From the IMG/VR virus record IMGVR_UViG_3300021256_002629, positions 64,001 through 128,000 of that record: a DNA stretch of 64,000 bases. One strand, given 5' to 3'. Both the position numbers and the translations under genes were made by a program. Positions 44,604 to 64,000 of this stretch are shown one piece after another. Under the pieces are notes generated by a model, which did no database searches, had not been told where the DNA came from, and saw only the letters and a program-made list of their open reading frames with translations. The stretch's first letter is position 1. Every line of letters begins with the position of its first letter. This DNA is from a virus. Taxonomy: Duplodnaviria > Caudoviricetes.

Positions 44604-45212
44604 ATGACAGAAAAAGAAGCTGAAGATTTGTGTAGAATGATAAGAGTAGGAGTAGATTTAAGTAAGCCCAAGTACAATTATCATCCAAAAACAAAAGATG
44701 AATTAAAATATTTAGTTGAAAAACTAATTGAAGAAAGGGGAAATGAGGCAGATTTGAATGATGTTGACGTTTCCCAAATTAAAGATATGAGTTTGATATT
44801 TTATCAATCTAAATTTAACGGCGATATTTCTAATTGGGACGTTAGTAGAGTTGAGAATATGTGGTCGATGTTTAATAGTTCTCAATTTAATGGGGATATC
44901 TCAAAATGGAATGTTAGTAAAGTGAAGTGGATGAATGGAATGTTTTCTTGCTCTAAATTTAATGGTGATATTTCAAATTGGGATGTTAGTGGAGTGTGGA
45001 GGATGAGTGGGATGTTCTACAAGTCTCAATTTAATAGTGATATTTCAAAGTGGGATGTTAGTGGAGTGAAGGATATGGAAGTGATGTTTTACGGTTCTAA
45101 ATTTAATGGGGATATTTCAAATTGGGATGTTAGTGGAGTTGAGAATATGGGTGGAATGTTTTGGGAATCTAAATTTAACGGCGATATCTCTAAATGGACT
45201 AAGAAACCATAA
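44604..45212 (+). CDS. BspA/DUF285-like repeat protein (6 repeats)
   Basis: FNGDISxWxVSxVxxMxxMF repeats. Confidence 0.9.
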   Translation: MTEKEAEDLCRMIRVGVDLSKPKYNYHPKTKDELKYLVEKLIEERGNEADLNDVDVSQIKDMSLIFYQSKFNGDISNWDVSRVENMWSMFNSSQFNGDISKWNVSKVKWMNGMFSCSKFNGDISNWDVSGVWRMSGMFYKSQFNSDISKWDVSGVKDMEVMFYGSKFNGDISNWDVSGVENMGGMFWESKFNGDISKWTKKP

Positions 45213-45289
45213 TAAAAAGAAACCCGGATTAATCTGGGTTTTTATTTTCTCCTCAAAATCTTATTTATGAAACCTTTAATAATTTTATC

Positions 45290-45829
45290 ATGACGGAAAA
45301 AGAAGCTGAAGAGTTGTGTAAGATGGTAAGAATAGGTGTAGATTTAAGCAAACCTAAATATAATTATCAACCAAAGACAAAAGAGGAATTAGAAGATCTT
45401 ATTAAGAAATTAATTAAGGAAAGGGGAAATGAGGCAGATTTGAATGATATAGACGTTTCCCAAATTACGGATATGGGTTTGGTATTTTATGATTCTCAAT
45501 TTAATGGCGATATTTCTAATTGGAATGTTAGTGGGGTTGAGGATATGTGGTCGATGTTTAATAGTTCTCAATTTAATGGGGATATCTCAAATTGGGACGT
45601 TAGTAGAGTTAAGGATATGAGTGGAATGTTTTCTTGCTCTAAATTTAATGGCGATATTTCTAAATGGAATGTTAGTGGAGTGAAGAATATGGGGCGTATG
45701 TTCTACAAGTCTCAATTTAATGGGGACATTTCAAATTGGGATGTTAGGAAGGTGAGGGATATGAGCTGGATGTTTGAAAGTTCTCAATTTAAAGGCGATA
45801 TTTCTAAATGGACCAAGAAACCGGAATAA
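45290..45829 (+). CDS. BspA/DUF285-like repeat protein (5 repeats)
   Basis: Same repeat. Confidence 0.9.
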   Translation: MTEKEAEELCKMVRIGVDLSKPKYNYQPKTKEELEDLIKKLIKERGNEADLNDIDVSQITDMGLVFYDSQFNGDISNWNVSGVEDMWSMFNSSQFNGDISNWDVSRVKDMSGMFSCSKFNGDISKWNVSGVKNMGRMFYKSQFNGDISNWDVRKVRDMSWMFESSQFKGDISKWTKKPE

Positions 45830-45835
45830 AAGAAA

Positions 45836-45907
45836 GACCTGGATAAATTTATCTGGGTTTTATTTTCTCCTCAAAATCTTATTATTGAAACCTTTAATAA
45901 TTTTATT
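45836..45907 (+). promoter_or_regulatory. Cassette boundary: terminator hairpin, promoter and leader (representative copy)
   Basis: acctggataaatttatctgggttttattttctcctcaaaatcttattattgaaacctttaataattttatt; copies near 45221, 48960, 51524, 52823, 53556, 55181, 57021, 57926, 59307, 60206, 61043, 63570. Confidence 0.8.
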
Positions 45908-46882
45908 ATGACGGAAAAAGAAGCCGAAGATTTGTGCAGAATGGTAAGAGTAGGAGTAGATTTAAGTAAACCCAATTATAAATATTATCCAGAAACAAGA
46001 GATGAATTAAAAGATCTAATCAACAAACTACTTGAAGAAAGAGGAATTGAGGCGGATTTGAATGATGTTGATGTTTCCAAAATTACGGATATGAGAGAAG
46101 TGTTTGCTTGGTCTCTGTTCAATGGAAATATTTCAAAATGGGATGTGAGTAAAGTGAGGAATATGTGGGGAATGTTTAGAAATTCTCAATTCAATGGAGA
46201 TATATCTAATTGGGATGTTAGTGGGGTTGAGGAGATGAGAGGAATGTTTTGGTATTCTCAATTTAATGGTGATATTTCAAATTGGGATGTTAGTGGGGTT
46301 GAGAGTATGAGTTGTATGTTTGCTTCTTCTGAATTTAATGGCGATATCTCAAATTGGAATGTTAGTAATGTGAATAGTATGTGGGAGATGTTCCGTAATT
46401 CTCAATTTAATGGAGATATTTCAAAATGGAATGTTAGTAGGGTTGAGAATATGTGTGAAATGTTTTCTCGTTCTCAATTTAATGGCGATATCTCAAAATG
46501 GAATGTTAGTAAAGTGAAGTGGATGAATGGAATGTTTTCTCGTTCTCAATTTAATGGGGATATCTCAAATTGGAATGTTAGTAGTGTGGAGGATATGGAA
46601 GGAATGTTTGAATGTTCTGAATTTAATGGAGATATCTCAAAATGGAATGTTAAGGAGGTTGTAAATATGAAAAAAATGTTCGCTAATAATAAATCTGCTA
46701 ATATTCCTGACTGGTGTCCTAATGAAAGTTTACTACGCAGAGTACTATCATTCTTAATGTGTAGGTATCCCGATCCTGAAAAAAGTTTTTGGAGGCCACT
46801 ATATACAGTATTACTGTTCTTAATAGGTATAGTAATGCTAGCGTTATTAGAATATTATGATCCAATGGGTAAGTATAAATAA
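45908..46882 (+). CDS. BspA/DUF285-like repeat protein (8 repeats) with C-terminal TM
   Basis: Repeats plus LYTVLLFLIGIVMLALL. Confidence 0.9.
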   Translation: MTEKEAEDLCRMVRVGVDLSKPNYKYYPETRDELKDLINKLLEERGIEADLNDVDVSKITDMREVFAWSLFNGNISKWDVSKVRNMWGMFRNSQFNGDISNWDVSGVEEMRGMFWYSQFNGDISNWDVSGVESMSCMFASSEFNGDISNWNVSNVNSMWEMFRNSQFNGDISKWNVSRVENMCEMFSRSQFNGDISKWNVSKVKWMNGMFSRSQFNGDISNWNVSSVEDMEGMFECSEFNGDISKWNVKEVVNMKKMFANNKSANIPDWCPNESLLRRVLSFLMCRYPDPEKSFWRPLYTVLLFLIGIVMLALLEYYDPMGKYK

Positions 46883-46906
46883 TTATTAATTTAATTAATT
46901 TTTATT

Positions 46907-48160: not shown

Positions 48161-48202
48161 TATGACGTTTTTAAATTATTAACTTAAAATTATCTATTAA
48201 TT

Positions 48203-48481
48203 ATGAAGTATATCATGTCAACAGTTGTTATTTGTTTAGCAATTTTTTGTGGGATTTTCTGCTATAATAAAATCAGAGAATCTAAAATTATGTCAGATGT
48301 TATTGAAAACGACATAGTAATTTATAAAGAAATCTCTCCCAACCTTTTAGGAAGCCCAACTTTTTACATACAAACGCTCAATGGGGGAGGAGAAGTTGAT
48401 GAAAAATCCTATCAATCCATCAATATTGGAGATAGAATTAATTATCGAAACGTCGGTAATAAAATTTTAATAGTCTATTAA
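48203..48481 (+). CDS. Small membrane-anchored protein
   Basis: N-terminal TM; VDEKSYQSINIGD. Confidence 0.65.
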   Translation: MKYIMSTVVICLAIFCGIFCYNKIRESKIMSDVIENDIVIYKEISPNLLGSPTFYIQTLNGGGEVDEKSYQSINIGDRINYRNVGNKILIVY

Positions 48482-48588
48482 ATACAATTAAGCCTAGAAG
48501 ATCAAATTCTAGGTTTATTTTTCTTTTTCCACCTAATTAACTTATATATGAAAGAAAAATATATTTAAACCCTATTTTAGATAAATTT

Positions 48589-48942
48589 ATGAATAATCTC
48601 AATAGTATTTTATTAATTTTAGTAATGATAGTGACTTCTGCTTGTTGTAATTGTCCAGTAGAAGAAGTGAGATCCCCAATTGGTGTAGTGAAAGATAAAT
48701 ATGAACAAACTATCCGCCACCGTAGAACTGTTTATAATCATTACAGTCATAGCCACACTTTTTATATAGCACCAATTACTCATTATAAAATAGTAATAGA
48801 AGAAGATAGTAGTAACACGAAAATAATAACAGTTGATGTTTCAGAAAAAGAGTATAAATCAATCCGTATTAAAGATACTATTTATAAAAACACGTTTATA
48901 AAAAAACATACTAATAAATGTAAATACAACAAAAATAAATAA
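48589..48942 (+). CDS. Putative lipoprotein
   Basis: Hydrophobic N-terminus ending TSAC; VSEKEYKSIRIKD similar to 48203. Confidence 0.6.
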   Translation: MNNLNSILLILVMIVTSACCNCPVEEVRSPIGVVKDKYEQTIRHRRTVYNHYSHSHTFYIAPITHYKIVIEEDSSNTKIITVDVSEKEYKSIRIKDTIYKNTFIKKHTNKCKYNKNK

Positions 48943-49035
48943 ATAAAGTATGTTATCAACCTAGATTAATTAATTTTAATCTGGGTTTTATTTTCTCCTC
49001 AAACTCTTATTTATGAAACCTTTAATAATTTTATT

Positions 49036-49932
49036 ATGACAGAAAAAGAAGCTGAAGATTTGTGTAGAATGATAAGAATAGGAGTAGATTTAAGTCCTAA
49101 ATATCAACCAAGAACGAAAGAAAAGTTAAAAGATCTCATCGAAGATTTAATTGAAGAAAGGGGAAATGAGGCAGACTTGAATGATGTTGATGTTTCTCAA
49201 ATTACGAATATGGAGTTGTTATTTGCCCATTCTAAATTCAATGGCGATATCTCTAAGTGGGATATTAGGAAGGTTGAAAGTATGGAAGGAATGTTTTATG
49301 ATTCCGAATTTAATGGAGATATTTCGGGTTGGAATGTTAGTAATGTAAAGAATATGAATAGTACGTTCTATGAATCTCGATTTAATGGTGATATCTCTAA
49401 GTGGAATGTTAGTGAAGTGAGGGACATGAAGGGAATGTTTGATTGCTCTCAATTCAATGGAGATATTTCTAATTGGGATGTTAGTAAGGTAGAAGATATG
49501 AGTTGGATATTTTCCGGTTCTCAATTCAATGGAAATATCTCAAAATGGAATGTTAGGGGAGTATGGAATATGTTTAGAATGTTTGCTTCTTCTAAATTTA
49601 ATGGAAATATATCTAATTGGGATGTTAGTAATGTTGAGTGTATGAGTGAGATGTTTTACTATTCTCAATTCAATAGTGATATCTCTAATTGGAATGTTAG
49701 TGGGGTGAAGGATATGAGCGGGATGTTTTATGGATCTCAATTTAACGGTGATATTTCAAAATGGGATGTTAGTAATGTTGAGAATATGAGTCGCATGTTT
49801 GAAAGCTCTCAATTCAATGGAGATATTTCTGATTGGGATGTTAGTGGGGTTGAGAGTATGGATGATATGTTTTGGAATTCTCAATTCAAAGGAGATATTT
49901 CAAAATGGGCTAAGAAACCAGATTTATTTTAA
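49036..49932 (+). CDS. BspA/DUF285-like repeat protein (10 repeats)
   Basis: Same repeat. Confidence 0.9.
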   Translation: MTEKEAEDLCRMIRIGVDLSPKYQPRTKEKLKDLIEDLIEERGNEADLNDVDVSQITNMELLFAHSKFNGDISKWDIRKVESMEGMFYDSEFNGDISGWNVSNVKNMNSTFYESRFNGDISKWNVSEVRDMKGMFDCSQFNGDISNWDVSKVEDMSWIFSGSQFNGNISKWNVRGVWNMFRMFASSKFNGNISNWDVSNVECMSEMFYYSQFNSDISNWNVSGVKDMSGMFYGSQFNGDISKWDVSNVENMSRMFESSQFNGDISDWDVSGVESMDDMFWNSQFKGDISKWAKKPDLF

Positions 49933-50019
49933 AAGAAAAGACCTAGATTATTAATTTTAGTCTAGGTTTTCTTTTCCCCAAAATGCCTTGTACATGAAAA
50001 TAATTAAAATTTATATATT

Positions 50020-51507: not shown

Positions 51508-51610
51508 AAAAAAATAAAAAGAAGCCTGGATTAATTAATTTTAGTCTAGGTTTTTATTTTCTCCTCAAAATCTTATTACTGAATGTTATAAACCTTTAAA
51601 TTAAATTCAT

Positions 51611-52807
51611 ATGAAGTACAATTATCAACCAAAAACGAAAAAGGAATTAAAAAGTCTTATCAAAAAATTAATTAAAAAAAGAGGAAATAAGGCAGATTTG
51701 AATGATGTTGATGTTTCTCAGATCACAGATATGAGTGGGTTGTTTACTAATTTTCAGTTTAATGGAAACATCTCAAATTGGAATGTTAGTAATGTTGAGG
51801 ATATGAGTAATATGTTTGAAGAGTCTAGATTTAATGGAGATATTTCAAAATGGGATGTTAGTAAGGTAAAGGATATGGGTGGAATGTTTAACTATTCTGA
51901 ATTTAATGGAGATATTTCAAATTGGAATGTTATGAGGGTGGAGAATATGTCGATGATGTTCTATAATTCTGAATTTAATGGTGACATCTCAAATTGGAAT
52001 GTGAGTAAGGTGGAAGATATGGGAGGAATGTTTTACGGTTCTCGATTTGACGGGGATATTTCTAACTGGGATGTTAGGAATGTGAAGAATATGTATGAGA
52101 TGTTTATGGCATCTCGATTTAACGGAGATATTTCGAAATGGAACGTTAGTAATGTTGAGGATATGGGAGGAATGTTTGATAATTCTGAATTTAGTGGAGA
52201 TATTTCAAATTGGGATGTTAGTAGAGTTGAGAATATGTGGAGGATGTTTAATTGGTCTAAATTTAATGGAGATATCTCTAATTGGAATGTTAGTAAAGTT
52301 GAGGAGATGAATGAGATGTTTGCTTATTCTAAATTTAATGGAGATATTTCTAAGTGGAACGTTAGTAAGGTGGAGAACATGTGGGAAATGTTTGCTGGTT
52401 CTAAATTTAACAAAGATATTTCAAAGTGGAATGTTAGTAATGTAAAGAATATGGGTGGGATGTTTCGAGAATCTAAATTCAACAAAGATATCTCAAAATG
52501 GGATGTTAGTAATGTTGAGAATATGGATGAGATGTTTATGACATCTCAATTCAATGGAAATATCTCTAATTGGAATGTTAGTAGAGTTGAAGATATGGAG
52601 GATATGTTTTGTGAGTCTAAATTTAACGGGGATATTTCAAAATGGGATGTTAGTAGGGTGAAGAATATGAGTTGTATGTTTCAGAGTTCTAAATTTAATG
52701 GAGACATTTCAAATTGGAATGTAAGTAAGGTTGAGGATATGGAGGATATGTTTGAAGATTCTCAATTTAATGGGGATATCTCTAGATGGACTAAGAAACC
52801 AGAATAA
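51611..52807 (+). CDS. BspA/DUF285-like repeat protein (15 repeats), no MTEKEAE leader
   Basis: Same repeat. Confidence 0.9.
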   Translation: MKYNYQPKTKKELKSLIKKLIKKRGNKADLNDVDVSQITDMSGLFTNFQFNGNISNWNVSNVEDMSNMFEESRFNGDISKWDVSKVKDMGGMFNYSEFNGDISNWNVMRVENMSMMFYNSEFNGDISNWNVSKVEDMGGMFYGSRFDGDISNWDVRNVKNMYEMFMASRFNGDISKWNVSNVEDMGGMFDNSEFSGDISNWDVSRVENMWRMFNWSKFNGDISNWNVSKVEEMNEMFAYSKFNGDISKWNVSKVENMWEMFAGSKFNKDISKWNVSNVKNMGGMFRESKFNKDISKWDVSNVENMDEMFMTSQFNGNISNWNVSRVEDMEDMFCESKFNGDISKWDVSRVKNMSCMFQSSKFNGDISNWNVSKVEDMEDMFEDSQFNGDISRWTKKPE

Positions 52808-52904
52808 AAAAAATAAAAAGAAGCCTGAATTAATTAATTTTAGTCCAGGTTTTATTTTCTTCTCAAAATCTTATTATTGAATATAAACTTTAAATTAAAT
52901 TTAT

Positions 52905-53550
52905 ATGAAGTACAATTATCAACCAAAAGCGAAAAAGGAATTAAAGGATATTATTAAAAAACAGAACAAGTATGGTTATTTCTCTTATAGTTGCCGTTGC
53001 CGATAACGGAATCATCGGCAAGGAAAACGGGTTGCCATGGCATATTGGCGCCGACCTGAAGCGCTTTAAGGCCATTACAACGGGCCACACCATTCTGATG
53101 GGTAAGAATACCTATCTTTCTATAGGACGCCCGTTGCCTAACCGCCGCAATGTGGTGCTGAGCAGAAGCCTGACCGCTGCCGATGTGCCCGGCTGTGAGC
53201 TGATTGCCAGTTTGGACGAACTCGATAAACTGGGGTTGGAACCCGACGAAGAACTGTTCGTTATAGGCGGTGCCCGTGTGTATGAGCAGTTGATGCCCAA
53301 GGCCGACAAACTGTATCTGACCAGGGTCCGTACACAGGCCGATGGGGACGTGAAATTCCCTGAAGTGGACTGGGACGAGTGGCAGCTTTGTAGCGAGACA
53401 CACGGATTTGCAGACGAAAAAAACGATTTCGACTACTGCTTCCAAAACTATGAACGGAAGAAATGATAATGTCAAAAATGCCACTGTATGTGTTGGGAAT
53501 CTAAATTTAATGGAGACATTTCAAAATGGGCTAAGAAATCGACAGAATAA
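52905..53550 (+). pseudogene. Repeat-gene cassette shell whose interior is replaced by DHFR
   Basis: 5' remnant MKYNYQPKAKKELKDIIKK (52905-52961) and 3' remnant ..WESKFNGDISKWAKK (53493-53550). Confidence 0.85.
52972..53466 (+). CDS. folA: Dihydrofolate reductase, host-derived
   Basis: IVAVADNGIIG..LPW, MGKNTY, RPLPNRRN, VIGGA; visibly GC-rich relative to flanks. Confidence 0.95.
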   Translation: MVISLIVAVADNGIIGKENGLPWHIGADLKRFKAITTGHTILMGKNTYLSIGRPLPNRRNVVLSRSLTAADVPGCELIASLDELDKLGLEPDEELFVIGGARVYEQLMPKADKLYLTRVRTQADGDVKFPEVDWDEWQLCSETHGFADEKNDFDYCFQNYERKK

Positions 53551-53632
53551 GATAAACCTAGATTAATTAATTTTAATCTGGGTTTTATTTTCTCCTCAAA
53601 CTCTTATTTATGAAACCTTTAATAATTTTATT

Positions 53633-55171
53633 ATGACAGAAAAAGAAGCAGAAGATTTGTGTAAAATGATAAGAGTAGGAGTAGATTTAAGTCCTAAAAA
53701 ATATCAACCAAGAACAAAAGAAAAGTTAAAAGATCTCATTGAGAAACTAATTGAAGAAAGGGGAAATGAAGCAGACTTGAATGATATAGACGTTTCCCAA
53801 ATTGAAGACATGAGTGAGGTGTTTGCTCATTCTCAATTTAATGGGGATATTTCTAATTGGGATGTTAGTGGAGTTGAGAAGATGAATTATATGTTTGCTG
53901 ATTCTCAATTCAAGGGAGATATTTCAAAATGGAACGTTAGTAAGGTGAAGGAAATGGGCGGAATGTTTTATAGTTCTGAATTTAATAGGGATATTTCAAG
54001 TTGGGATGTGAGTAATGTTGAGTATATGTTTGGAATGTTTTGCGGATCTAAATTTAATGGCGATATCTCTAATTGGAATGTAAGTAAAGTGAAGGATATG
54101 AATAGGATGTTTGAAGGTTCTGAATTTAATAGAGATATTCCTAGTTGGGACGTTAGTGGGGTTGAGTTTATGAATGAAATGTTTTCCAGTTCTCAATTCA
54201 ATGGAGACATTTCAAATTGGAATGTGAGTAGGGTGAAGGACATGAGTTATATGTTTAAAAAATCTCAATTTAATGGGGATATCTCAAAATGGAATGTTAG
54301 TGGAGTTGAGGATATGAGAGGGATGTTTACCTTTTCTCAATTTAATGGGGATATCTCAAAATGGAATGTTAGTGGAGTTGAGGATATGGGAAGAATGTTT
54401 TATAGTTCTCAATTTAATGGTGATATTTCTAGTTGGGATGTTAGTAATGTTAAGTATATGGGCGAGATGTTCGATAGTTCTCAATTCAATGGAAACATTT
54501 CGAATTGGGATGTTAGTAATGTGAAGAGTATGATGGGCATGTTCCGAGATTCTCAGTTCAATGGAAATATTTCTAATTGGAACATTAGTAGCGTTGAGAA
54601 TATGGATGAAATGTTTTATAGTTCTCAATTTAATGGTGATATTTCTAGTTGGGACGTTAGTGGAGTAAAGAGGATGAGTTATATGTTTGGTTTTTCTAAC
54701 TTTAATGGAGATATCTCTAAATGGAATGTTAGTGGAGTTGAGGATATGTACAAAATGTTTTGCGGTTCTAAATTCAATGAGGATATTTCTAATTGGGATG
54801 TTAGAAAAGTGAAGAGTATGGTTGGAATGTTTTCCTACACTAAATTTAATGGAGATATCTCTAAATGGGATGTTAGTGGAGTTGAAGATATGGAGGAGAT
54901 GTTTGCTAATTCCGAATTCAATGGAGATATTTCAAATTGGAATGTTAGTAGGGTGAAGAAGATGGAAAGAATGTTTTATAAGTCTAAATTCAACGGTGAT
55001 ATCTCAAAATGGGATGTTAGTAATGTTGAGAATATGTATGGAATGTTTGAAAGCTCTAAATTTAATGGGGATATTTCTAATTGGAATGTTAGTAGGGTGA
55101 AGTACATATTTGGGATATTTGATAATTCTCAATTCAAAGGAGATATTTCAAAATGGGCTAAGAAACCATAA
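53633..55171 (+). CDS. BspA/DUF285-like repeat protein (19 repeats)
   Basis: Same repeat. Confidence 0.9.
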   Translation: MTEKEAEDLCKMIRVGVDLSPKKYQPRTKEKLKDLIEKLIEERGNEADLNDIDVSQIEDMSEVFAHSQFNGDISNWDVSGVEKMNYMFADSQFKGDISKWNVSKVKEMGGMFYSSEFNRDISSWDVSNVEYMFGMFCGSKFNGDISNWNVSKVKDMNRMFEGSEFNRDIPSWDVSGVEFMNEMFSSSQFNGDISNWNVSRVKDMSYMFKKSQFNGDISKWNVSGVEDMRGMFTFSQFNGDISKWNVSGVEDMGRMFYSSQFNGDISSWDVSNVKYMGEMFDSSQFNGNISNWDVSNVKSMMGMFRDSQFNGNISNWNISSVENMDEMFYSSQFNGDISSWDVSGVKRMSYMFGFSNFNGDISKWNVSGVEDMYKMFCGSKFNEDISNWDVRKVKSMVGMFSYTKFNGDISKWDVSGVEDMEEMFANSEFNGDISNWNVSRVKKMERMFYKSKFNGDISKWDVSNVENMYGMFESSKFNGDISNWNVSRVKYIFGIFDNSQFKGDISKWAKKP

Positions 55172-55253
55172 TAAAAAGAAACCTGGATTAATTTTATCTG
55201 GGTTTTATTTTCTCCTCGAAATCTTATTATTGAAAACTTTTAATAATTTTATT

Positions 55254-57008
55254 ATGACAGAAAAAGAAGCAGAAGATCTATGTAGAATGATAAGAATAGG
55301 AGTAGATTTAAGTCCTAAATATCAACCAAGAACGAAAGAAAAGTTAAAAGATCTCATCGAAGATTTAATTAAAGAAAGGGGAAATGAGGCAGATTTGAAT
55401 GATGTTGATGTTTCCCAAATTGAGGACATGAGTTACGTGTTTCATAGATCTAAATTTAACGGGAATATTTCTAAATGGAATGTTAGTAGGGTGAAGAGTA
55501 TGGAAGGAATGTTCGCCTATTCTGACTTTAATGGGGATATTTCTAAATGGAATGTTAGTAATGCGGAGAATATGAATTGTATGTTTGATAGTTCTCAATT
55601 TAGTGGGGATATCTCAAAATGGAATGTTAATGGAGTTAAGGATATGAGTTATATGTTTTTTAATTCTAAATTTAATGGGGATATTTCTAATTGGGACGTT
55701 AGTAAGGTGGAGTGTATGGGAGGAATATTCCGGGAATCTCAATTTAATGGAGATATCTCAAGCTGGAATGTTAGTAGGGTAAAGGGCATGGATTGTATGT
55801 TTGCTGATTCTCAATTTAATGGAGATATTTCTAGTTGGGATGTTAGTGGAGTTGAGGATATGAGTCATATGTTTTCTAGCTCTCAATTTAATGGGGATAT
55901 CTCAAAATGGAATGTGAGTAAGGTGAAGGATATGGCTTGGATGTTTAAAGAATCTAAATTTGATGGAGATATTTCAAAATGGGACGTTAGTAAGGTCGAA
56001 GATATGATGGGGATGTTTGCTGATTCTCAATTTAACGGAGATATATTAAATTGGGATGTTAGTAAGGTAAAGAACATGAACTGGATGTTTGCTGATTCTA
56101 AGTTTAATGGGGATATCTCTAAATGGGATGTTAGTAATGTTGAGGGTATGTGTGGGATGTTTAATACGTCTCAATTCAACAAAGACATTTCTAAATGGAA
56201 TGTTGGTAAGGTTGAGAATATGTGTAAAATGTTCCGAGGTTCTCAATTTAATGGCGATATTTCTAATTGGAACATTAGTAGTAGTGTTGAGAGTATGGAT
56301 GAAATGTTTTATAGTTCTCAATTTAATGGTAATATCTCAAACTGGGATGTTAGTAATGTTAAAGAGATGAATTATATGTTTGCTTATTCTCAATTCAACG
56401 GTGATATTTCGAAATGGGATGTTAGTGGAGTTAAGAGTATGTATAAAATGTTTTGGTATTCTCAATTCAATGAGGATATTTCTAATTGGGATGTTAGTAG
56501 TGTTGGGGATATGAGTGGGATGTTTGCCCATTCTAAATTTAATGGAGATATCTCGAAATGGAATGTGAGTAAGGTGGAGAACATGGGTTGGATGTTTTCT
56601 GAATCTCAATTTAACGGGGATATCTCAAATTGGGATGTTAGTAATGTTGAGAATATGTGTGAAATGTTTTCTCGTTCTCAATTTAATGGCGATATCTCAA
56701 ATTGGGATGTTAGTGGAGTGAAGGATATGAGAGGAATGTTTTATGGATCTCAATTTAACAGTAATATCTCAAAATGGGATGTTAGTAAGGTGGAGAATAT
56801 GAGTGAGATGTTTGAAGAGTCTCAATTCAATGGTGATATCTCAAAATGGGATGTTAGTAAGGTGTGGGATATGCAGAATATGTTTTATGGTTCTCAATTT
56901 AACGGTGATATATCAAAATGGGATGTTAGTGGAGTTGTGAATATGGGAGGAATGTTTGTTCGTTCTCAATTCAATGGTGATATTTCAAAATGGGCTAAGA
57001 AACCGTAA
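55254..57008 (+). CDS. BspA/DUF285-like repeat protein (22 repeats)
   Basis: Start corrected to MTEKEAED at 55254. Confidence 0.9.
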   Translation: MTEKEAEDLCRMIRIGVDLSPKYQPRTKEKLKDLIEDLIKERGNEADLNDVDVSQIEDMSYVFHRSKFNGNISKWNVSRVKSMEGMFAYSDFNGDISKWNVSNAENMNCMFDSSQFSGDISKWNVNGVKDMSYMFFNSKFNGDISNWDVSKVECMGGIFRESQFNGDISSWNVSRVKGMDCMFADSQFNGDISSWDVSGVEDMSHMFSSSQFNGDISKWNVSKVKDMAWMFKESKFDGDISKWDVSKVEDMMGMFADSQFNGDILNWDVSKVKNMNWMFADSKFNGDISKWDVSNVEGMCGMFNTSQFNKDISKWNVGKVENMCKMFRGSQFNGDISNWNISSSVESMDEMFYSSQFNGNISNWDVSNVKEMNYMFAYSQFNGDISKWDVSGVKSMYKMFWYSQFNEDISNWDVSSVGDMSGMFAHSKFNGDISKWNVSKVENMGWMFSESQFNGDISNWDVSNVENMCEMFSRSQFNGDISNWDVSGVKDMRGMFYGSQFNSNISKWDVSKVENMSEMFEESQFNGDISKWDVSKVWDMQNMFYGSQFNGDISKWDVSGVVNMGGMFVRSQFNGDISKWAKKP

Positions 57009-57092
57009 TAAAAAAGAAAGACCTGGATAAATTTATCTGGGTTTTTATTTTCTCCTCAAAATCTTATTTATGAAACCTTTAATAATTTTATT

Positions 57093-57917
57093 ATGACAGA
57101 AAAAGAAGCAGAAGAGTTATGTAGAATGATAAGAGTAGGGGTAGATTTAAGTTCTAAGAAATACCGACCAAAAACAAAAGAAAAGTTAAAAGATCTCATT
57201 GAAGATTTAATTGAAATAAGAGGAAATGAGGCGGATTTGAATGATATAGACGTTTCCCAAATTACAGATATGAGTTGGTTATTTCACATATCTCAATTTA
57301 ATGGAGACATTTCAAAATGGGACGTGAGTAAAGTTGAGAATATGCATGCTATGTTTTATGGGTCTCAATTCAACAAAGACATTTCTAAATGGAATGTTAG
57401 TAATGTTAGGGAGATGAGTTTTATGTTTTATAATTCTAAATTTAATGGTGATATCTCAAACTGGGATGTTAGTAAGGTTGAGGATATGTGGACGATGTTT
57501 TCTGATTCTCAATTTAATGGGGATATTTCAAACTGGGATGTTAGGAAGGTGGAGTGTATGAATAATATGTTTGGGGGTTCTCAATTCAATGGGAATATTT
57601 CAAAATGGGATGTTAGTGGGGTGAAGAATATGGGTTACATGTTTACTGATTCTCAATTTAATGGGGATATTTCTAAATGGGATGTTAGTAGGGTGGAGAG
57701 TATGTATGGGATGTTTTGGGGTTCTCAGTTCAATGGGGATATCTCAAACTGGGATGTTAGTAAGGTAAAGGATATGAGTTACATGTTTACTGATTCTCAA
57801 TTTAATGGGAATATTTCAAAATGGGATGTTAGTGGGGTTGAGAATATGGAGAATATGTTTTATGGCTCTCAATTTAATGGGAATATCTCAGAATGGGCTA
57901 AGAAACCGACAATATAA
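57093..57917 (+). CDS. BspA/DUF285-like repeat protein (9 repeats)
   Basis: Same repeat. Confidence 0.9.
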   Translation: MTEKEAEELCRMIRVGVDLSSKKYRPKTKEKLKDLIEDLIEIRGNEADLNDIDVSQITDMSWLFHISQFNGDISKWDVSKVENMHAMFYGSQFNKDISKWNVSNVREMSFMFYNSKFNGDISNWDVSKVEDMWTMFSDSQFNGDISNWDVRKVECMNNMFGGSQFNGNISKWDVSGVKNMGYMFTDSQFNGDISKWDVSRVESMYGMFWGSQFNGDISNWDVSKVKDMSYMFTDSQFNGNISKWDVSGVENMENMFYGSQFNGNISEWAKKPTI

Positions 57918-58003
57918 AAAGAAAGACCTAGATTAATTTTAGTCTGGGTTTTATTTTCTCCTCAAGATCTTATTATTGAATATAAATCTTAAATTAAATT
58001 TAT

Positions 58004-58783: not shown

Positions 58784-58785
58784 TC

Positions 58786-59378: not shown

Positions 59379-60197
59379 ATGACAGAAAAAGAAGTCGAAG
59401 ATTTGTGTAGAATGATAAGGGTAGGAGTAGATTTAAGCAAAAAATATCAACCAAGAACAAAAGAAAAGTTAGAAGATCTAATCAAAGAACTAGTTAAAAA
59501 AAGGGGAAATGAAGCAAATTTGAATGATATTGATGTTTCCCAAATTGAAGATATGAGTTATTTGTTTTTTGATTCTAAATTTAATGGAAATATATCTAAA
59601 TGGAATGTTAGTAATGTGAAGAATATGACAGGAATGTTCGATAATTCCCAATTCAATGGGGATATTTCTAATTGGGACGTTAGTGGAGTTGAGGATATGT
59701 GGGGGATGTTTAATGACTCTGAATTTAATGGAGATATCTCAAATTGGAATGTTAGTAGTGTGAAGAATATGGGTATGATGTTTGATAATTCCCAATTCAA
59801 TGGTGATATTTCAAAATGGGATGTTAGTAGTGTAAAAGATATGAAGTGGATGTTTAAAGCTTCTAAATTCAACGGGGATATTTCTAAATGGAACGTTAGT
59901 GAGGTGAGGAGTATGTTGGGGATGTTTGACAGTTCTCAATTTAGTGGAGATATTTCTAATTGGAATGTTAGTAATGTTGAGAATATGAGTTGGATGTTTG
60001 CTCATTCCATATTTAGTGGAGATATTTCTAATTGGAATGTTAGTAATGTTGAGAATATGAGTTGGATGTTTACTTCTTCTGAATTTAATGGCGATATCTC
60101 AAATTGGAATGTTAGTAATGTGAATAGTATGTGGGAGATGTTCTGTAATTCTGAATTTAAAGGCGATATCTCAAAATGGGCTAAGAAACCAAAATAA
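59379..60197 (+). CDS. BspA/DUF285-like repeat protein (9 repeats)
   Basis: Same repeat. Confidence 0.9.
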   Translation: MTEKEVEDLCRMIRVGVDLSKKYQPRTKEKLEDLIKELVKKRGNEANLNDIDVSQIEDMSYLFFDSKFNGNISKWNVSNVKNMTGMFDNSQFNGDISNWDVSGVEDMWGMFNDSEFNGDISNWNVSSVKNMGMMFDNSQFNGDISKWDVSSVKDMKWMFKASKFNGDISKWNVSEVRSMLGMFDSSQFSGDISNWNVSNVENMSWMFAHSIFSGDISNWNVSNVENMSWMFTSSEFNGDISNWNVSNVNSMWEMFCNSEFKGDISKWAKKPK

Positions 60198-60278: not shown

Positions 60279-61034
60279 ATGACAAAAAAAGAAGCCGAAG
60301 ATTTGTGTAGAATGATAAGGATAGGAGTAGATCTAAGCAAGCCTAAATACCAACCAAAAACAAAAAAGGAATTAAAAAATCTAGTCAAAGAACTGATTAA
60401 AGAAAGAGGAAATAAAGCAGATTTGAATGATATAGACGTTTCTCAAATTACGAGTATGAGCGAACTATTTTATAAATCTGAATTTAATGGGGATATCTCA
60501 AAATGGAATGTTAGTAAAGTGAAGTGGATGAATGGAATGTTCTATAAGTCTCAATTCAATGGAGACATATCTAATTGGGATGTTAGTGGAGTTGAGGATA
60601 TGGCAGTGATGTTTTCTGGGTCTCAATTCAATGGGAATATCTCAAAATGGAATGTTGGTAGAGTGAAAAGTATGAGTTGGATGTTTGAAAGTTCTCTATT
60701 TAATGGGGATATCTCAAAATGGGATGTTAGTGGGGTTGAGTGGATGCACAAGATGTTTGCTTATTCTAAATTTAATGGAGACATTTCAAATTGGAATGTT
60801 AGTAATGTGGAGGATATGAAAGGAATGTTTTTTTGTTCTAAATTTAATGGTGATATCTCTAGTTGGGATGTCAGTAAGGTTGAGAAGATGGATTGGATGT
60901 TTTATTGTTCTAAATTCAATGGGGATATCTCAAAATGGAATGTTAGTAATGTTGAGAGTATGGAAGATATGTTTTATTGTTCTAAATTCAATGGGGATAT
61001 CTCAAAATGGACTAAGAAACCAGCCCCATTTTAA
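60279..61034 (+). CDS. BspA/DUF285-like repeat protein (8 repeats)
   Basis: Same repeat. Confidence 0.9.
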   Translation: MTKKEAEDLCRMIRIGVDLSKPKYQPKTKKELKNLVKELIKERGNKADLNDIDVSQITSMSELFYKSEFNGDISKWNVSKVKWMNGMFYKSQFNGDISNWDVSGVEDMAVMFSGSQFNGNISKWNVGRVKSMSWMFESSLFNGDISKWDVSGVEWMHKMFAYSKFNGDISNWNVSNVEDMKGMFFCSKFNGDISSWDVSKVEKMDWMFYCSKFNGDISKWNVSNVESMEDMFYCSKFNGDISKWTKKPAPF

Positions 61035-61119: not shown

Positions 61120-62013
61120 ATGACGGAAAAAGAAGCGGAAGACCTATGTAGGATGGTAAGAATAGGAGTAGATTTAAGTAAGCCTAAGTTCAGACCAAAA
61201 ACAAAAGAGGAGTTAAAAGATCTCATTGAGAAACTAATTGAAGAAAGGGGAAATGAAGCAGATTTGAATGATGTTGATGTTTCCCGAATTACAAGCATGA
61301 GCGAACTGTTTGCCTACACTAACTTTAATGGGGATATCTCAAAATGGAATGTTAGTAGAGTGAAGTGGATGAAAGATATGTTTCGTAGTTCTAAATTCAA
61401 CGGTAATATTTCTAATTGGAATGTTAGTAAGGTTGAAGATATGGAAGGAATGTTTGCCTACACTAACTTTAATGGAGATATTTCTAAATGGAATGTTAGT
61501 AGGGTTAAGAATATGAATCATTTGTTTACTGGTTCTCAATTCAATGGCAATATTTCAAATTGGAATGTTAGTGGAGTTGAGGATATGAGAGGATTGTTTT
61601 ATTATTCTCAATTTAATGGAGATATCTCAGGTTGGGATGTTGGGGGAGTGAAGAATATGATCGGGATGTTCCGAAATTCTCAATTTAATGGCGATATCTC
61701 AAGTTGGAATGTTAGTAAAGTTAAGTGGATGGAAGTTATGTTTGAAGGTTCTAAATTTAACGGTAATATCTCAAATTGGAATGTTAGTGGAGTGAAGAAT
61801 ATGAGAAGTATGTTTGAAAACTCCCAATTTAATAATGATATTTCAAATTGGGATGTGAGTAAGGTTGAGAATATGTGGTGTATGTTTAGAAATTCCCAAT
61901 TTAATGGAGACGTCTCTAAGTGGAATGTTAGTAAGGTGGGGAATATGTGGGGGATGTTTCGGGGTTCTAAATTTAATGGGGATATTTCAAAATGGACTAA
62001 TAAACCAACATAA
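61120..62013 (+). CDS. BspA/DUF285-like repeat protein (10 repeats)
   Basis: Same repeat. Confidence 0.9.
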   Translation: MTEKEAEDLCRMVRIGVDLSKPKFRPKTKEELKDLIEKLIEERGNEADLNDVDVSRITSMSELFAYTNFNGDISKWNVSRVKWMKDMFRSSKFNGNISNWNVSKVEDMEGMFAYTNFNGDISKWNVSRVKNMNHLFTGSQFNGNISNWNVSGVEDMRGLFYYSQFNGDISGWDVGGVKNMIGMFRNSQFNGDISSWNVSKVKWMEVMFEGSKFNGNISNWNVSGVKNMRSMFENSQFNNDISNWDVSKVENMWCMFRNSQFNGDVSKWNVSKVGNMWGMFRGSKFNGDISKWTNKPT

Positions 62014-62067
62014 TAAAAAGAAAATAAAGAGAATAATATAGTAATAAACTATTATTCTCTCTATTTT

Positions 62068-62580
62068 TTAGTCTTCTTTATCTTTTCTTCGACCTTTTAA
62101 ATACATACCACCTCCTGCGGCAGCTGAAGCGGCTGAGATACCCATTCCCCAGCGTGCTTTTCGTAATGCTTTATCAATCTTTTTATTCTCAGCAAGCACC
62201 TTCTCTACTGGCACACGATTCTCGTCCATAATCTTATGATAAGATTCCTCATAGAGTCTACCAAGTTGATCTTTCTTTATATTAAACCATGCAGGTGACT
62301 TTCTTCCCCTTTTGGCTCCTTCCCGTGCCAGCCATTTTAATCTCTGAATTTCTTCTTTTTCTTTAGCAGCGAGTTCTTTTTTAGCTAGCGAATTTTTAAT
62401 GTCCGCCTCGGCAGCTGCTACATCAAGCTCTTTCTTACCTTTTTTTTGTGCTTCTTTCAGGTCTTTAGCCAACATAGAACTTGAATAAACCCCTACTCCG
62501 CCAAGTAGAGCGAGTCCTTCTCCGACATTAGAAAGATTGTTATTTTCTTCACTGAAGAATCTTTGTCTTATAATTCTCAT
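62068..62580 (-). CDS. MRIxRQxxF family protein
   Basis: MRIIRQRFFS; Gly/Ala-rich hydrophobic segments. Confidence 0.7.
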   Translation of the reverse strand: MRIIRQRFFSEENNNLSNVGEGLALLGGVGVYSSSMLAKDLKEAQKKGKKELDVAAAEADIKNSLAKKELAAKEKEEIQRLKWLAREGAKRGRKSPAWFNIKKDQLGRLYEESYHKIMDENRVPVEKVLAENKKIDKALRKARWGMGISAASAAAGGGMYLKGRRKDKED

Positions 62581-62594
62581 AAACTACACTTTTT

Positions 62595-62960
62595 TTATCT
62601 ACACCGTCTGTATATCATACCTCCGGATTCTTTAGGATTTTTCATTGCTGCTAAGACTGCCTGTTCCTTAGTAAGATAACGTTCTACTTCTCCAAGCTCT
62701 TTATCGTTTATAAAAAATGGTTTAACATTTCCTTGAATTCGATGTTCTATCATAGCAGCTTCCCCTGGACTACCAAATACAGAAGCGATACCTTTCTTTA
62801 CTTTATGTTTGAATTTATTAAAGCCAGTCATAGGAACTCCCCAAGGCCTACTAACAACGTCAAGAGCTGTTCCTGATATTTTAGATCCAGACGCAGACTT
62901 CCATGCATTAAAAAGAGCATCCGTCTTAGCATTAAATACCTTCTGTCTAACTATTCTCAT
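62595..62960 (-). CDS. MRIxRQxxF family protein
   Basis: MRIVRQKVFN. Confidence 0.7.
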   Translation of the reverse strand: MRIVRQKVFNAKTDALFNAWKSASGSKISGTALDVVSRPWGVPMTGFNKFKHKVKKGIASVFGSPGEAAMIEHRIQGNVKPFFINDKELGEVERYLTKEQAVLAAMKNPKESGGMIYRRCR

Positions 62961-62964
62961 ATTA

Positions 62965-63294
62965 TTAAAAAATTCCCACTCCTAAAGAGACAGCTTTGTT
63001 TTTCTTTTCTTTTATCTCTTTTAAAAGTTGTTTTTTAGCCTGCTTATCATGTAAAGGGTCTCTATATCCTATATGTTCCTTAGCAAAAGTATTATTCAAG
63101 CGCAAATTACCTCTTCTTATTTGTCTTAGGGCTATCTGCTCTTTTGTTAGCTCTCTACCAAGCTTATCTATACCAGTTCCTGAATTTTTGACTGCTTTAG
63201 ATATTTTAAGTTTATCTCGTAATCCTGCATTTTTAATAGCCTTCAAATTTAACTCAGTAGCTAAAGTAAAAGTTCTTTGTCGTAATATTCTCAT
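62965..63294 (-). CDS. MRIxRQxxF family protein
   Basis: MRILRQRTFT. Confidence 0.7.
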   Translation of the reverse strand: MRILRQRTFTLATELNLKAIKNAGLRDKLKISKAVKNSGTGIDKLGRELTKEQIALRQIRRGNLRLNNTFAKEHIGYRDPLHDKQAKKQLLKEIKEKKNKAVSLGVGIF

Positions 63295-63310
63295 AGTCTA
63301 TAAAATTTAG

Positions 63311-63383
63311 TGGACCGTGTCGGATTTGAACCGCTTCTTCTCGGTGCAAACGAGATGTAATAAGCCATTATACTACACAGCCC
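63311..63383 (-). tRNA. tRNA-Ala(TGC)
   Basis: GGGCTGT/ACGGTCC with G3:U70; tctcg-ttTGCac-cgaga; GGTTCAAATCC. Confidence 0.9.
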
Positions 63384-63406
63384 TGTATTTACAAATCAAT
63401 AAAAAG

Positions 63407-63479
63407 AGGCCTCACCCAGATTCGAACTGAGGTTTCAAGATTACAAATCTAGTGCTCTAACCAACTAAACTATAAGGCC
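63407..63479 (-). tRNA. tRNA-Thr(TGT)
   Basis: GGCCTTA/TGAGGCC; ctaga-ttTGTaa-tcttg; CTCAG-TTCGAAT-CTGGG. Confidence 0.8.
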
Positions 63480-63519
63480 TAAAATTTAATAAAAGCTAAC
63501 TCCTTAATGTTAACCAATA

Positions 63520-63529
63520 CATACATAAG
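63520..63529 (-). promoter_or_regulatory. Promoter motif CTTATGTATG for the tRNA and MRIxRQ operon
   Basis: Reverse complement of catacataag, 40 nt upstream of tRNA-Thr. Confidence 0.65.
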
Positions 63530-63637
63530 AAGTTTGTTAAAAAATAATAAGAATAGTGGTAGTGGTGTGTTTAATTTTAATCTAGGTTTTTATTTTCTCC
63601 TCAAACTCTTATTTATGAAACTTTTAGTAATTTTATT

Positions 63638-64000
63638 ATGACGGAAAAAGAAGCAGAGGATTTATGTAGAATGGTGAGAATAGGGGTAGATTTAAGTAAG
63701 AATAAGTATAATTATCATCCAAAAACAAGAGAGGAATTAAAAGATCTAATTGGAAAACTAATTAAAGAAAGGGGAAATGAGGCAGATTTGAATGATATAG
63801 ACGTTTCCGGAATTACAGATATGACTCATATGTTTTATGGGTCTGAATTTAATGGAGATATTTCAGAATGGGACGTTAGAGGAGTAAAGAATATGCAAGG
63901 AATGTTTTATGGGTCTGAATTTAATGGCGATATCTCTGGCTGGAATGTTAGGAAGGTTGAGGATATGGACGGAATGTTTGAGAGTTCTAAATTTAATGGT
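63638..64000 (+). CDS. BspA/DUF285-like repeat protein, runs off the window
   Basis: MTEKEAEDLCRMVRIGVDLSK after a cassette boundary. Confidence 0.85.
   Translation, partial: MTEKEAEDLCRMVRIGVDLSKNKYNYHPKTREELKDLIGKLIKERGNEADLNDIDVSGITDMTHMFYGSEFNGDISEWDVRGVKNMQGMFYGSEFNGDISGWNVRKVEDMDGMFESSKFNG

Follow-up and report, generated by a model that had tools for sequence, protein, structure and literature searches.

Two arrays of DUF285 repeat-protein genes in an uncultivated tailed jumbo phage, probably a lineage-specific expansion shaped by unit slippage and ectopic conversion

Repeat proteins of the PARCEL type consist of tandem units of about 25 residues with conserved hydrophobic and highly variable hydrophilic positions, nearly every unit being unique; intragenomic shuffling was proposed for them, and 'untargeted' ORFs on mobile elements were proposed as variant reservoirs (Roske et al.). 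The giant virus AaV (Kratosvirus quantuckense) encodes 38 DUF285 proteins in repetitive regions (PMC10720644, PMC5917014). Among phages, Bacillus phage G carries about 35 zinc-ribbon copies, a lineage-specific expansion in a jumbo phage (PMC7824862), Vibrio phage pir03 carries a single giant PARCEL ORF of 19 kb (PMC7765460), and in phage Goslar proteins whose ends are LRR or carbohydrate-binding have an N-terminal module in common (bioRxiv 10.64898/2026.04.21.720040). The parts of the locus described here have known precedents in the multigene families of repeat proteins of giant viruses and in the bacterial PARCEL repeats; the searchable literature yielded no published array in which dozens of small DUF285 genes carry a leader.

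The locus lies in record IMGVR_UViG_3300021256_002629 (138.5 kb); the window is the whole stretch of 64,000 nt that was analysed (positions 64,001 to 128,000 of the record), and its region 44604-64000 is the subject of this report. The record encodes phage-type proteins, i.e. a DnaB-like helicase, GroEL, an RNAP beta-like protein, an actin-like protein and phage-tail-repeat proteins, in addition to a weak, sub-threshold match to RusA, and an ENA contig of 312 kb shows 100% identity across 17.1 kb. The virus is an uncultivated tailed jumbo phage of at least about 334 kb. A captured folA (DHFR) gene within the array (52% GC; DNA 98.4% identical to Bacteroidales bacterium UBA3297) points to a rumen Bacteroidales host.

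The region comprises 15 plus-strand DUF285 ORFs, with 157 units wholly within it and the final ORF crossing the window edge (Table 1). This recount agrees with the preliminary description, which reported at least 15 genes, each containing between 3 and 22 copies of a 24-aa unit, and about 157 copies in total; in the whole record the family is larger, with 38 genes (products of 179-637 aa) and 370 units in two arrays, which occupy about 35 kb or 25% of its length. The region represents the larger part of the second array, which extends beyond the window with four further genes after g33, as far as record position 132927; its neighbours are nucleotide-metabolism and cytoskeletal genes (dUTPase/DCD, an actin-like gene, DHFR, NrdD). 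The first array is located upstream in the record and begins about 6 kb downstream of the tail-repeat genes.

Table 1. Features of region 44604-64000 of the window, with the unit count of each DUF285 gene in order of position
Feature	Position	Strand	Basis
DUF285/PARCEL gene g19: 202 aa, 6 units, leader and WTKKP tail	44604..45212	+	profile match, unit count
Intergenic cassette, example: GC-rich hairpin and T-run (terminator-like), then element TTTTCTCCTCAAAATCTTATT, about 27 nt to ATG	45213..45289	+	
DUF285 gene g20: 179 aa, 5 units	45290..45829	+	
DUF285 gene g21: 324 aa, 8 units, C-terminal hydrophobic anchor-like segment	45908..46882	+	
g21: three exact blocks common to distant paralogs	46323-46393, 46442-46497, 46487-46540	+	
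DUF285 gene g22: 417 aa, 12 units, C-terminal hydrophobic anchor-like segment	46907..48160	+	
Two small non-DUF285 genes within the array: 92 aa (N-terminal hydrophobic segment) and 117 aa (lipoprotein-like N-terminus)	48203..48942	+	N-termini read directly; no family match
DUF285 gene g23: 298 aa, 10 units; protein used for structure model	49036..49932	+	
DUF285 gene g24: 495 aa, 19 units, short leader; mosaic relative to strains L007-L009	50020..51507	+	
DUF285 gene g25: 398 aa, 15 units, short leader	51611..52807	+	
DUF285 cassette with repeat body replaced by dihydrofolate reductase gene (insert 52972-53466)	52820..53632	+	
DUF285 gene g26: 512 aa, 19 units	53633..55171	+	
DUF285 gene g27: 584 aa, 22 units; contains strain-polymorphic conversion tract	55254..57008	+	
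g27 conversion tract: 52 differences, window vs strain L007	56624..56866	+	
DUF285 gene g28: 274 aa, 9 units; donor or partner of g27 tract	57093..57917	+	
DUF285 gene g29: 259 aa, 3 units only, and unique C-terminal region of about 150 aa	58004..58783	+	
Non-DUF285 ORF inside the array: 169 aa, no family match; conserved in strains L006 and L007	58786..59295	+	
DUF285 gene g30: 272 aa, 9 units; adjacent-unit duplication (61-bp exact block, 59939/60011)	59379..60197	+	
DUF285 gene g31: 251 aa, 8 units	60279..61034	+	
DUF285 gene g32: 297 aa, 10 units	61120..62013	+	
Three small paralogous genes interrupting the array: 170, 121 and 109 aa, all starting MRI.RQ; no family match	62068..63294	-	
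DUF285 gene g33: cut at window edge; in full record 205 aa, 6 units	63638..64000	+	

Every tested member matches Pfam DUF285 (PF03382; E 1e-27 to 1e-288; 93-938 bits, cut-off 25; 119 matches in the record), and scores for TIGR02167 (PARCEL) were 39-93 bits (cut-off 30). The unit-to-unit spacing is exactly 24 aa in 327 of 332 intervals. An AF2 model of g23 (pLDDT 96.4) has LRR solenoids as its closest solved structures, i.e. BRI1 (TMq 0.52), internalins and Bacteroides BspA-like proteins, and, among predicted structures, strongly matches DUF285 proteins from AaV, from Megaviridae and from several large phages; profile matches and model both bear out the assignment to BspA/DUF285-type LRR-like repeats that had been made from the letters alone.

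Across the 370 units, entropy is below 0.9 bits at W1, V3, S4, V6, M9, M12, F13, S16, F18, N19, G20, D21, I22 and S23, and 3.4-3.7 bits at unit positions 10, 11, 14 and 15, a profile that separates the near-invariant scaffold from the hypervariable positions noted earlier. Of these units, 368 are unique (mean unit identity 0.71), and 343 distinct four-residue combinations occur at the variable positions with little linkage between them; four positions per coil vary almost freely, and the 24-residue period implies that each unit position forms a stripe along the solenoid. The variable sites are enriched, relative to the phage proteome, in W (4.9-fold), C (2.8-fold), Y (2.1-fold) and G (2.1-fold). 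The composition first suggested (rich in W, Y, C, M and charged residues) therefore holds for W, Y and C, with G in addition, but M is depleted (0.8% versus 2.0% in the phage proteome) and charged residues are not enriched.

The DUF285 cassettes have a common layout. A terminator-like hairpin comes first, followed by a family-specific upstream element and then by the coding part, which specifies a cap (about 50 aa), between 3 and 22 coils of 24 aa each, and a W-A/T-K-K-P tail. The cap consists of a 20-aa N-terminal helix (MTEKEAEDLCRM...), which is absent in three family members, and a second helix; the conserved N-terminal leader is common to at least 30 paralogs and to a second phage record. 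The terminator and the conserved upstream element TTTTCTCCTCAAAATCTTATT precede 34 of the 38 genes and the DHFR cassette, and are essentially absent elsewhere in the record. All 38 genes are complete ORFs, and each is predicted, from its sequence, to be a self-contained promoter-to-terminator cassette. No N-terminal signal peptide or lipobox was found in any of the 38, in line with what had been stated for signal peptides, but g21 and g22 (45908 and 46907) carry membrane-anchor-like hydrophobic segments at the C-terminus.

By HMM, these genes belong to the same repeat family as PARCEL, with which they also have the unit pattern and the near-universal unit uniqueness in common. Targeting to membrane or surface is frequent in that family but not obligatory. 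They differ from PARCEL in a unit of 24 residues, in their organization as 38 tandem small bacteriophage genes with a private leader and a private promoter/terminator cassette, and in the lack of signal peptide and lipobox; furthermore, recombination is documented between strains in the phage array, whereas in PARCEL it was only proposed. Whole-unit dyad symmetry was undetected in the phage array by a crude ungapped test that differs from the method of the PARCEL paper (consensus unit against its own reverse complement, 28 of 72 positions; shuffled mean, 31). Long antisense ORFs do occur. The AaV family shares with the phage array the dozens of clustered paralogs, a conserved upstream motif, an origin by duplication, and matching folds (PMC10720644, PMC5917014); in contrast, AaV is a eukaryote-infecting nucleocytovirus, sequence identity is only about 30-40%, and some AaV members are fused to other domains. 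The present record does not fit a nucleocytovirus genome, given its phage-type neighbours (DnaB-like helicase, phage tail repeat proteins) and the bacterial host-derived folA. Phage G and pir03 are likewise large phages that amplify one small domain family or carry DUF285 repeats, but with a different domain (zinc ribbon) or as one huge gene (PARCEL ORF).

Gene g21 had been described as a mosaic of blocks identical to distant genes, and these identities were recovered (46323=60073, 71 bp; 46442=56646, 56 bp; 46487=44895, 54 bp; 46487=60492, 50 bp); another exact block is shared by 44884 and 60481 (61 bp). In total, 15 in-register exact matches of at least 50 bp were observed, compared with none in ten codon-column shuffles, and the longest shared block is 83 bp, compared with 41-47 bp in the shuffles; the flanks of the shared blocks are at background identity.

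Strain variants were located via the embedded host-derived DHFR gene, and the array variants were observed between samples only. Across the 243-bp tract in g27, the allele of strain L007 matches the window's g28 (from 57527) at 239 bases and is identical to L007's own g28 across about 220 bp within the tract; the crossover zones are only about 20-30 bp. This tract is an ectopic gene conversion of g28 into g27. A patch in g28 (57763-57842) also differs between strains, with 77 of its 80 bases in the L007 allele matching g27 at 55633. Relative to strains L007-L009, gene g24 combines their genes A and B in a mosaic with a stretch that has no close match. Gene A has 0 mismatches between L008 and L009 but exact in-frame deletions of whole units (144 nt and 72 nt) at direct repeats of 20 nt and 79 nt. 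The g27/g28 tract and the g24 mosaic substantiate the exchange of blocks in 72-bp register between paralogs that had been deduced from one genome, and the objection that the array might be static across strains fails, because its content differs between them.

All compared sequences are short-read metagenome assemblies of a highly repetitive region, the identical G000, L005 and L006 may not be independent, and scaffold L006 is visibly chimeric, with phage and bacterial DNA joined at the DHFR gene that both contain; in principle, the mosaics and the differences between strains might be short-read assembly artefacts across repeats. We regard this as scarcely credible. Identity between units is only about 71%, and exact matches seldom extend beyond 50 bp, which is too short to mislead assemblers at final k-mer sizes. 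The crossover zones of the g27 tract span only about 20-30 bp, two records that were assembled differently contain the same g21 (with an identical copy in ENA contig L005) and the same g24 mosaic, and genes A and B agree across three samples.

Lamprey variable lymphocyte receptors (VLRs) arise by somatic assembly, in which silent cassettes complete an unfinished gene in a process that involves AID-like deaminases; the variable residues of the receptors sit on the concave sheet. The phage array had been likened to this system, and the likeness extends to LRR-type solenoid modules and to repeat-sized blocks copied between loci via short homologies. It does not extend to the apparatus: the phage genes are all complete and separately equipped, with neither an incomplete recipient gene nor silent donor cassettes among the 38, exchange events are seen only between strains, and no cytidine deaminase (PF00383) match was found in the 138.5-kb record, which covers all but about 195 kb of the phage. 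No reverse transcriptase (RVT_1) match was found in G000 or the related record G001, as the preliminary description had also noted; this, and the lack of a near-identical template/variable pair (0 of 68,265 unit pairs identical), rules against a diversity-generating retroelement (DGR).

We therefore give little chance to a VLR-like combinatorial system, in which frequent copying of 72-bp modules would continually make intracellular binders against host defence proteins under diversifying selection. It would agree with the module exchange between paralogs, which is real and polymorphic between strains, with a unit number in gene A that changes faster than point mutation, with the binding-site-like make-up of the variable sites (W, Y, G, S, C) and with the nearly free combination of residues at them. 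It is at odds with the shared terminator and upstream element in place of a recipient/donor architecture, with the few exact shared blocks and the absence of long near-identical stretches, with identical arrays in records that have 0 or 1 mismatch over 17 kb, and with the selection pattern. At strain level, pN/pS is 0.04 for the scaffold, which is under strong purifying selection, 0.10 for semi-variable sites and 0.36 for hypervariable sites, the last value resting on 3 synonymous and 5 non-synonymous changes (8 only) and becoming 0.16 against pooled pS; the diversifying selection postulated earlier for the variable sites is not borne out by these values (about 0.2-0.4, below 1, on only 8 changes). 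The paralogs themselves are old and saturated, with no recent duplicates: only one stretch of at least 100 bp reaches at least 88% identity between paralog pairs, pS in the leader is 0.42, and leader identity is equal within and between two phage records.

Conversion looks sporadic, since only 15 exact blocks of at least 50 bp are found in about 26.6 kb of repeats together with that single near-identical stretch, and we infer that recombination in the array is sporadic and evolutionary, with no programmed diversity generator. Probably, then, the array is a lineage-specific expansion of non-secreted, presumed solenoid binders, shaped by ordinary slippage and by ectopic conversion and not by VLR-like programmed assembly. 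The processes by which the family changes are, first, gain or loss of whole 72-bp units at short direct repeats, second, ectopic gene conversion over short tracts (about 50-250 bp) from one paralog to another, and third, gene fusion or loss.

The infected cell would produce these proteins as non-secreted binders, every one with a surface of its own; a few might be membrane-tethered through the C-terminal anchor. The most likely job of the proteins would be the binding of variable host or competitor molecules. An intracellular anti-defence role may be envisaged, and a role as intracellular binding module has precedent, because in giant viruses DUF285 is found in fusions with a putative E3 ligase and with a kinase (UniProt names).

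The bacterial relatives are mostly annotated as surface proteins, the family being named for surface proteins and adhesins in bacteria, and the phage relatives are mostly very large proteins (Vibrio phage pir03, Aeromonas D3, Klebsiella N1M2) that could be fibres. Array 1 also has tail-repeat genes about 6 kb upstream of it, so that a role in the virion or as an adhesin stays as a rival. The products would then be virion-associated adhesins or alternative receptor-binding modules, docked to tail or head by the N-terminal helix and providing many binding specificities in the rumen, for which the shared N-terminal module of phage Goslar would be a precedent (bioRxiv 10.64898/2026.04.21.720040). 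We consider this rather unlikely: the genes are small and have no known virion-attachment domain, the first helix is missing in three members and two have membrane-anchor-like tails, array 2 lies amid metabolic and cytoskeletal genes, and the upstream element is private to the DUF285 family.

The leader conserved in paralogs and in the second phage record might also be read as a capsid-targeting tag, on proteins packaged in the capsid and injected with the DNA like the internal proteins of T4. This is very improbable, as no T4-protease-type (L/I)-x-E site occurs in the first 25 residues of the consensus leader, the leader is modelled as a confidently folded helix beside the cap and not as a free tag, and products of up to 637 aa are large for internal proteins; a T4-type prohead protease was not found in the record, in a search that was uninformative.

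In the searchable literature, no description was found of a tailed phage in which 38 DUF285 genes, each equipped separately, take up about 35 kb. The strain contigs provide direct, dated examples of how such a family changes, by unit slippage, conversion tracts of 80-250 bp and gene fusion, and the embedded folA links the uncultivated jumbo phage with one specific lineage of rumen Bacteroidales, itself uncultivated. A wider proposal, which we put forward as a doubtful possibility, is that large phages of several lineages, this one included, maintain dozens of cytoplasmic LRR-like binders as a standing repertoire that recombination shuffles. Each binder would be adapted to another variable component of host defence or host surface, and short-tract conversion and unit slippage would renew the set; if true, the virus would thereby possess, for its side of the arms race, a recognition library encoded in the germline. 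If the products bind host factors, the arrays would represent a new and large class of phage genes for interaction with the host, and at the same time a natural collection of compact solenoid binders.

The DUF285 array in the window consists of 15 genes of one common plan, i.e. a conserved N-terminal region (leader) of about 50 aa, 3-22 copies of a 24-aa (72-bp) unit, and a short W-A/T-K-K-P tail; the 157 units counted in the preliminary description were recovered exactly, as units located fully inside the region. Every member tested scored very strongly against Pfam DUF285 (PF03382) and the NCBIfam PARCEL repeat (TIGR02167). The window corresponds to positions 64001-128000 of an IMG/VR virus record of 138.5 kb. 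The record as a whole encodes 38 DUF285 genes, all of them complete, in two arrays (record positions 39897-59098 and 108604-132927) that sum to 34.8 kb, or 25% of the record. A total of 370 units were identified in the record using a simple position score, and the spacing from unit to unit is 24 aa in 327 of 332 intervals. A highly conserved intergenic cassette, comprising a terminator-like hairpin with a T-run and then the element TTTTCTCCTCAAAATCTTATT, precedes 34 of the 38 genes, as well as one cassette of array 2 in which the repeat body was replaced by folA (DHFR); it is essentially absent elsewhere in the record. A crude, ungapped comparison detected no dyad symmetry across whole units. 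A 94-aa mini-gene with a DUF285 cap and a single unit lies distant from both arrays, and three small paralogs, each starting MRI.RQ and without a family match, break up the array in the window. The features are summarized in the table.

Features in the window discussed in the text
Position	Strand	Feature	Remarks
3665-5332		GroEL	adjoins AIPR gene
5450-7285		AIPR protein	abortive-infection-type
28758-30734		two neighbouring bactofilin/hexapeptide beta-solenoid genes
33015-33299		mini-gene
33728-38254		second paralogous family	531, 144, 150, 369, 126, 184 aa; weak Phage_HP1_YO09 matches
42340-43362		actin-like gene	ParM/MreB-type
44604-64000	+	DUF285 genes of array 2
48203-48942		two small genes
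50020		mosaic DUF285 gene
52820-53632		DHFR gene (folA) inside DUF285 cassette	host-type; 52% GC
55254-57008	+	DUF285 gene g27	584 aa
57093-57917	+	DUF285 gene g28	274 aa
62068-63294	-	three small paralogs

Across the 370 units, the entropy is 3.4-3.7 bits at the hypervariable positions 10, 11, 14 and 15, 2.3-2.6 bits at positions 5, 7 and 8, and below 0.9 bits at 14 scaffold positions. The protein sequence is unique in 368 of the units, and 343 distinct four-residue combinations occur at the hypervariable sites, with neighbouring positions weakly coupled. Compared with the rest of the phage proteome, these sites show an excess of W (4.9x), C (2.8x), Y (2.1x), G (2.1x) and S (1.7x), whereas M, L, I, V and K are under-represented; hence, the enrichment in W, Y and C that had been described stands, whereas 'rich in M and charged residues' is incorrect by this comparison with the phage's other proteins.

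The very confident AlphaFold2 model of a 298-aa member (pLDDT 96.4, pTM 0.88) starts with two N-terminal helices, which lead into a regular coil of 24 residues. A sequence search of the PDB revealed no detectably similar solved structure, and a Foldseek search against the PDB gave weak LRR matches (E 6e-3 or worse), namely BRI1 (TMq 0.52), then internalins and Bacteroides BspA-like proteins; the best matches among predicted viral structures were DUF285 proteins of the giant virus AaV and of environmental Megaviridae, and large proteins of several phages. The proposed BspA/DUF285-type LRR-like solenoid agrees with the family matches and with the model, whose nearest solved folds, though at weak similarity, are LRR solenoids.

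The exact blocks shared between genes that were named in the preliminary description are all real. When each codon column was shuffled among units as a null, no in-register exact matches of at least 50 bp were obtained, compared to 15 observed, and the longest in-register match was 41-47 bp compared to 83 bp observed. The exact blocks are flanked by ordinary identity (0.6-0.85), and in three cases the block duplicates the unit next to it.

Stronger evidence for module exchange is provided by strain variants, which were retrieved by look-up of the exact DHFR protein. The genes g25-g29 differ by 1-2% between the window and one such contig (L007), and the differences are clustered: in g27, 52 are found within one 243-bp stretch, for which the L007 allele matches g28 of the window at 239 of 243 bases, with about 220 bp identical to L007's own g28 and crossover zones of merely 20-30 bp or so; a smaller patch in g28 matches g27. 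A DUF285 gene of other strains (gene A) is free of mismatches between contigs L008 and L009, and the two copies differ by exact deletions of 144 nt and 72 nt, which keep the reading frame and have direct repeats of 20 and 79 nt at their borders. In the mosaic gene of the window, gene A is combined with a block of some 140 bp from a second such gene (gene B), with the 3' end of gene B, and with a stretch without close match; a separate gene B is absent from the window. In another sample, a 466-aa gene stands, at the protein level, in the place of g27 and g28. Given the clustered differences, the unit deletions and the mosaic between strains, the array is therefore not static across strains. Ectopic conversion over short tracts, slippage of units and gene fusion have all taken place; the gene conversion postulated beforehand is supported by these strain data.

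Judged from their divergence, the units are old. The mean pairwise DNA identity among units is 0.71, and a unit's nearest neighbour, which is located in the other array as often as in its own, matches at a median of 61 of 72 positions; there are no identical unit pairs. Whole-gene comparisons yielded only one stretch of at least 100 bp reaching 88% identity. Among paralogs, the leader has a pS of 0.42 and a pN of 0.045, and its identity is 0.886 within the record, 0.876 within G001, i.e. the sole related viral record found with the same leader, and 0.879 between both. Unit divergence and leader identities therefore indicate neither recent gene duplicates nor whole-gene homogenisation. G001 and the available part of the phage share no core genes and no blocks of at least 45 bp at 94% identity or higher. 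A second large phage fragment (IMGVR_UViG_3300021256_000072, positions 1-24000) encodes 17 DUF285 genes that share this leader and tail, one of them with an N-terminal hydrophobic segment, and has no near-identical blocks in common with the record.

A reverse transcriptase was found neither in the 138.5-kb record, as had been noticed before, nor in G001, and no cytidine deaminase was found in the 138.5 kb available of this phage of at least about 334 kb. Arrays are identical in those records that differ by 0 or 1 mismatch along 17 kb. Paralog-level pN/pS is saturated and uninformative; at the strain level, with conversion-like clusters masked, pN/pS is 0.04 for scaffold, 0.10 for semi-variable and 0.36 for hypervariable sites, the latter from 3 synonymous and 5 non-synonymous changes (0.16 with pooled pS). 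These small counts point to relaxed constraint at the hypervariable sites rather than to demonstrated diversifying selection, and the diversifying selection predicted in the preliminary description was not borne out by this site-class comparison (8 changes). There is no support for a programmed or positively selected system, because the genes are all complete and 34 of the 38 have the common terminator and upstream element, reverse transcriptase and deaminase were not found in the sequence searched, arrays in near-identical records are identical, and pN/pS is low. The analogy to lamprey VLRs holds only for the copying of LRR-like modules between genes, but not for programmed assembly.

The gene neighbourhood is of phage type, with a DnaB-like helicase, GroEL, a divergent protein resembling RNA polymerase beta, an actin-like protein, and solenoids of the bactofilin type, and a giant-virus origin of the record, prompted by the AaV DUF285 family, was rejected on this ground. 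A CCA-adding enzyme and two proteins with phage tail repeats are encoded upstream of array 1, and array 2 is flanked by dUTPase/DCD (upstream) and NrdD (downstream). Contig L005 (ENA ERZ12302812 NODE_13, 312 kb) is 100% identical to window positions 35908-53017, stops 46 bp inside the DHFR gene, and extends the IMG/VR record upstream by about 195 kb; this overlap and extension, with collinearity assumed, give the phage size of at least about 334 kb, in agreement with the CheckV completeness estimate of 40% for the record. Megablast of window positions 30000-44600 against the phage collection gave no matches, and no related loci were found with two unique flanking or embedded genes. Other genes of the window include an AIPR gene, a second paralogous family with relatives in G001 (31-45% identical), and the bactofilin and actin-like genes, i.e. 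cytoskeleton-like proteins in a jumbo phage.

The folA insert is preceded by the first 20 or so codons of the old DUF285 gene and followed by the last codons and the terminator of that gene; folA is present in at least 7 sample contigs. Compared with Bacteroidales MAG UBA3297, folA is 98.4% identical over 509 bp of DNA and 100% identical as protein. On this sequence evidence, folA is a recent host-to-phage capture, and its origin provides a strong lead to the host; the sample names suggest the rumen as habitat. In contig L006 (ENA ERZ28612970 scaffold_163, positions 1-946), the DHFR sequence common to both connects a bacterial RseP/M50-peptidase-like gene with the phage; the junction is probably an assembly chimera, since folA is near-identical in phage and bacterium of the same sample.

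PARCELs were described in 2010 as a repeat family with variable polar positions, found as 'untargeted' reservoir ORFs on mobile elements with intragenomic shuffling (PMC2996958). AaV encodes 38 DUF285 proteins located in repetitive regions (PMC10720644), and the AaV and phage arrays are alike in having a conserved motif upstream of the DUF285 genes (PMC5917014). Jumbo phages are known that encode one giant PARCEL ORF (PMC7765460) or in which other domains have undergone lineage-specific expansion (PMC7824862); the 'Jug' phages of Bacteroides (360-402 kb) have group I introns, as does the present phage, and their source paper makes no mention of DUF285-type repeats. No published account of a phage array with dozens of small leader-tagged DUF285 genes was found in the literature searched. 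The array is a variant within viral repeat-protein multigene families and PARCEL, both already known.

The DUF285 ORFs are intact and their scaffold is strongly constrained, and each gene is equipped for separate expression. None of the 38 genes encodes a secretion signal, as had been claimed for those of the window; two members have a C-terminal hydrophobic tail, with which the solenoid would stay in the cytoplasm. The anti-defence function put forward in the preliminary description is hypothetical. Directly 3' of the two DUF285 genes with C-terminal anchor-like tails lie two small genes, the N-termini of which are hydrophobic or lipoprotein-like; these may form a membrane-associated subgroup. 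A serious rival is a role of the array proteins as virion adhesins or in receptor binding, as the relatives in bacteria are surface proteins, those in phages are huge and fibre-sized, and phage Goslar has an N-terminal docking module common to its host-recognition proteins (bioRxiv 10.64898/2026.04.21.720040). The leader might also represent a capsid-targeting tag, but it lacks a T4-type cleavage site; a search of the record for the T4 prohead protease, uninformative by nature, gave no matches. Giant viruses encode DUF285 fused with a putative E3 ligase and with a kinase, and the module can therefore be an intracellular recognition domain. Within the infected cell, the array products would together act as a set of non-secreted binders that differ in their surfaces.
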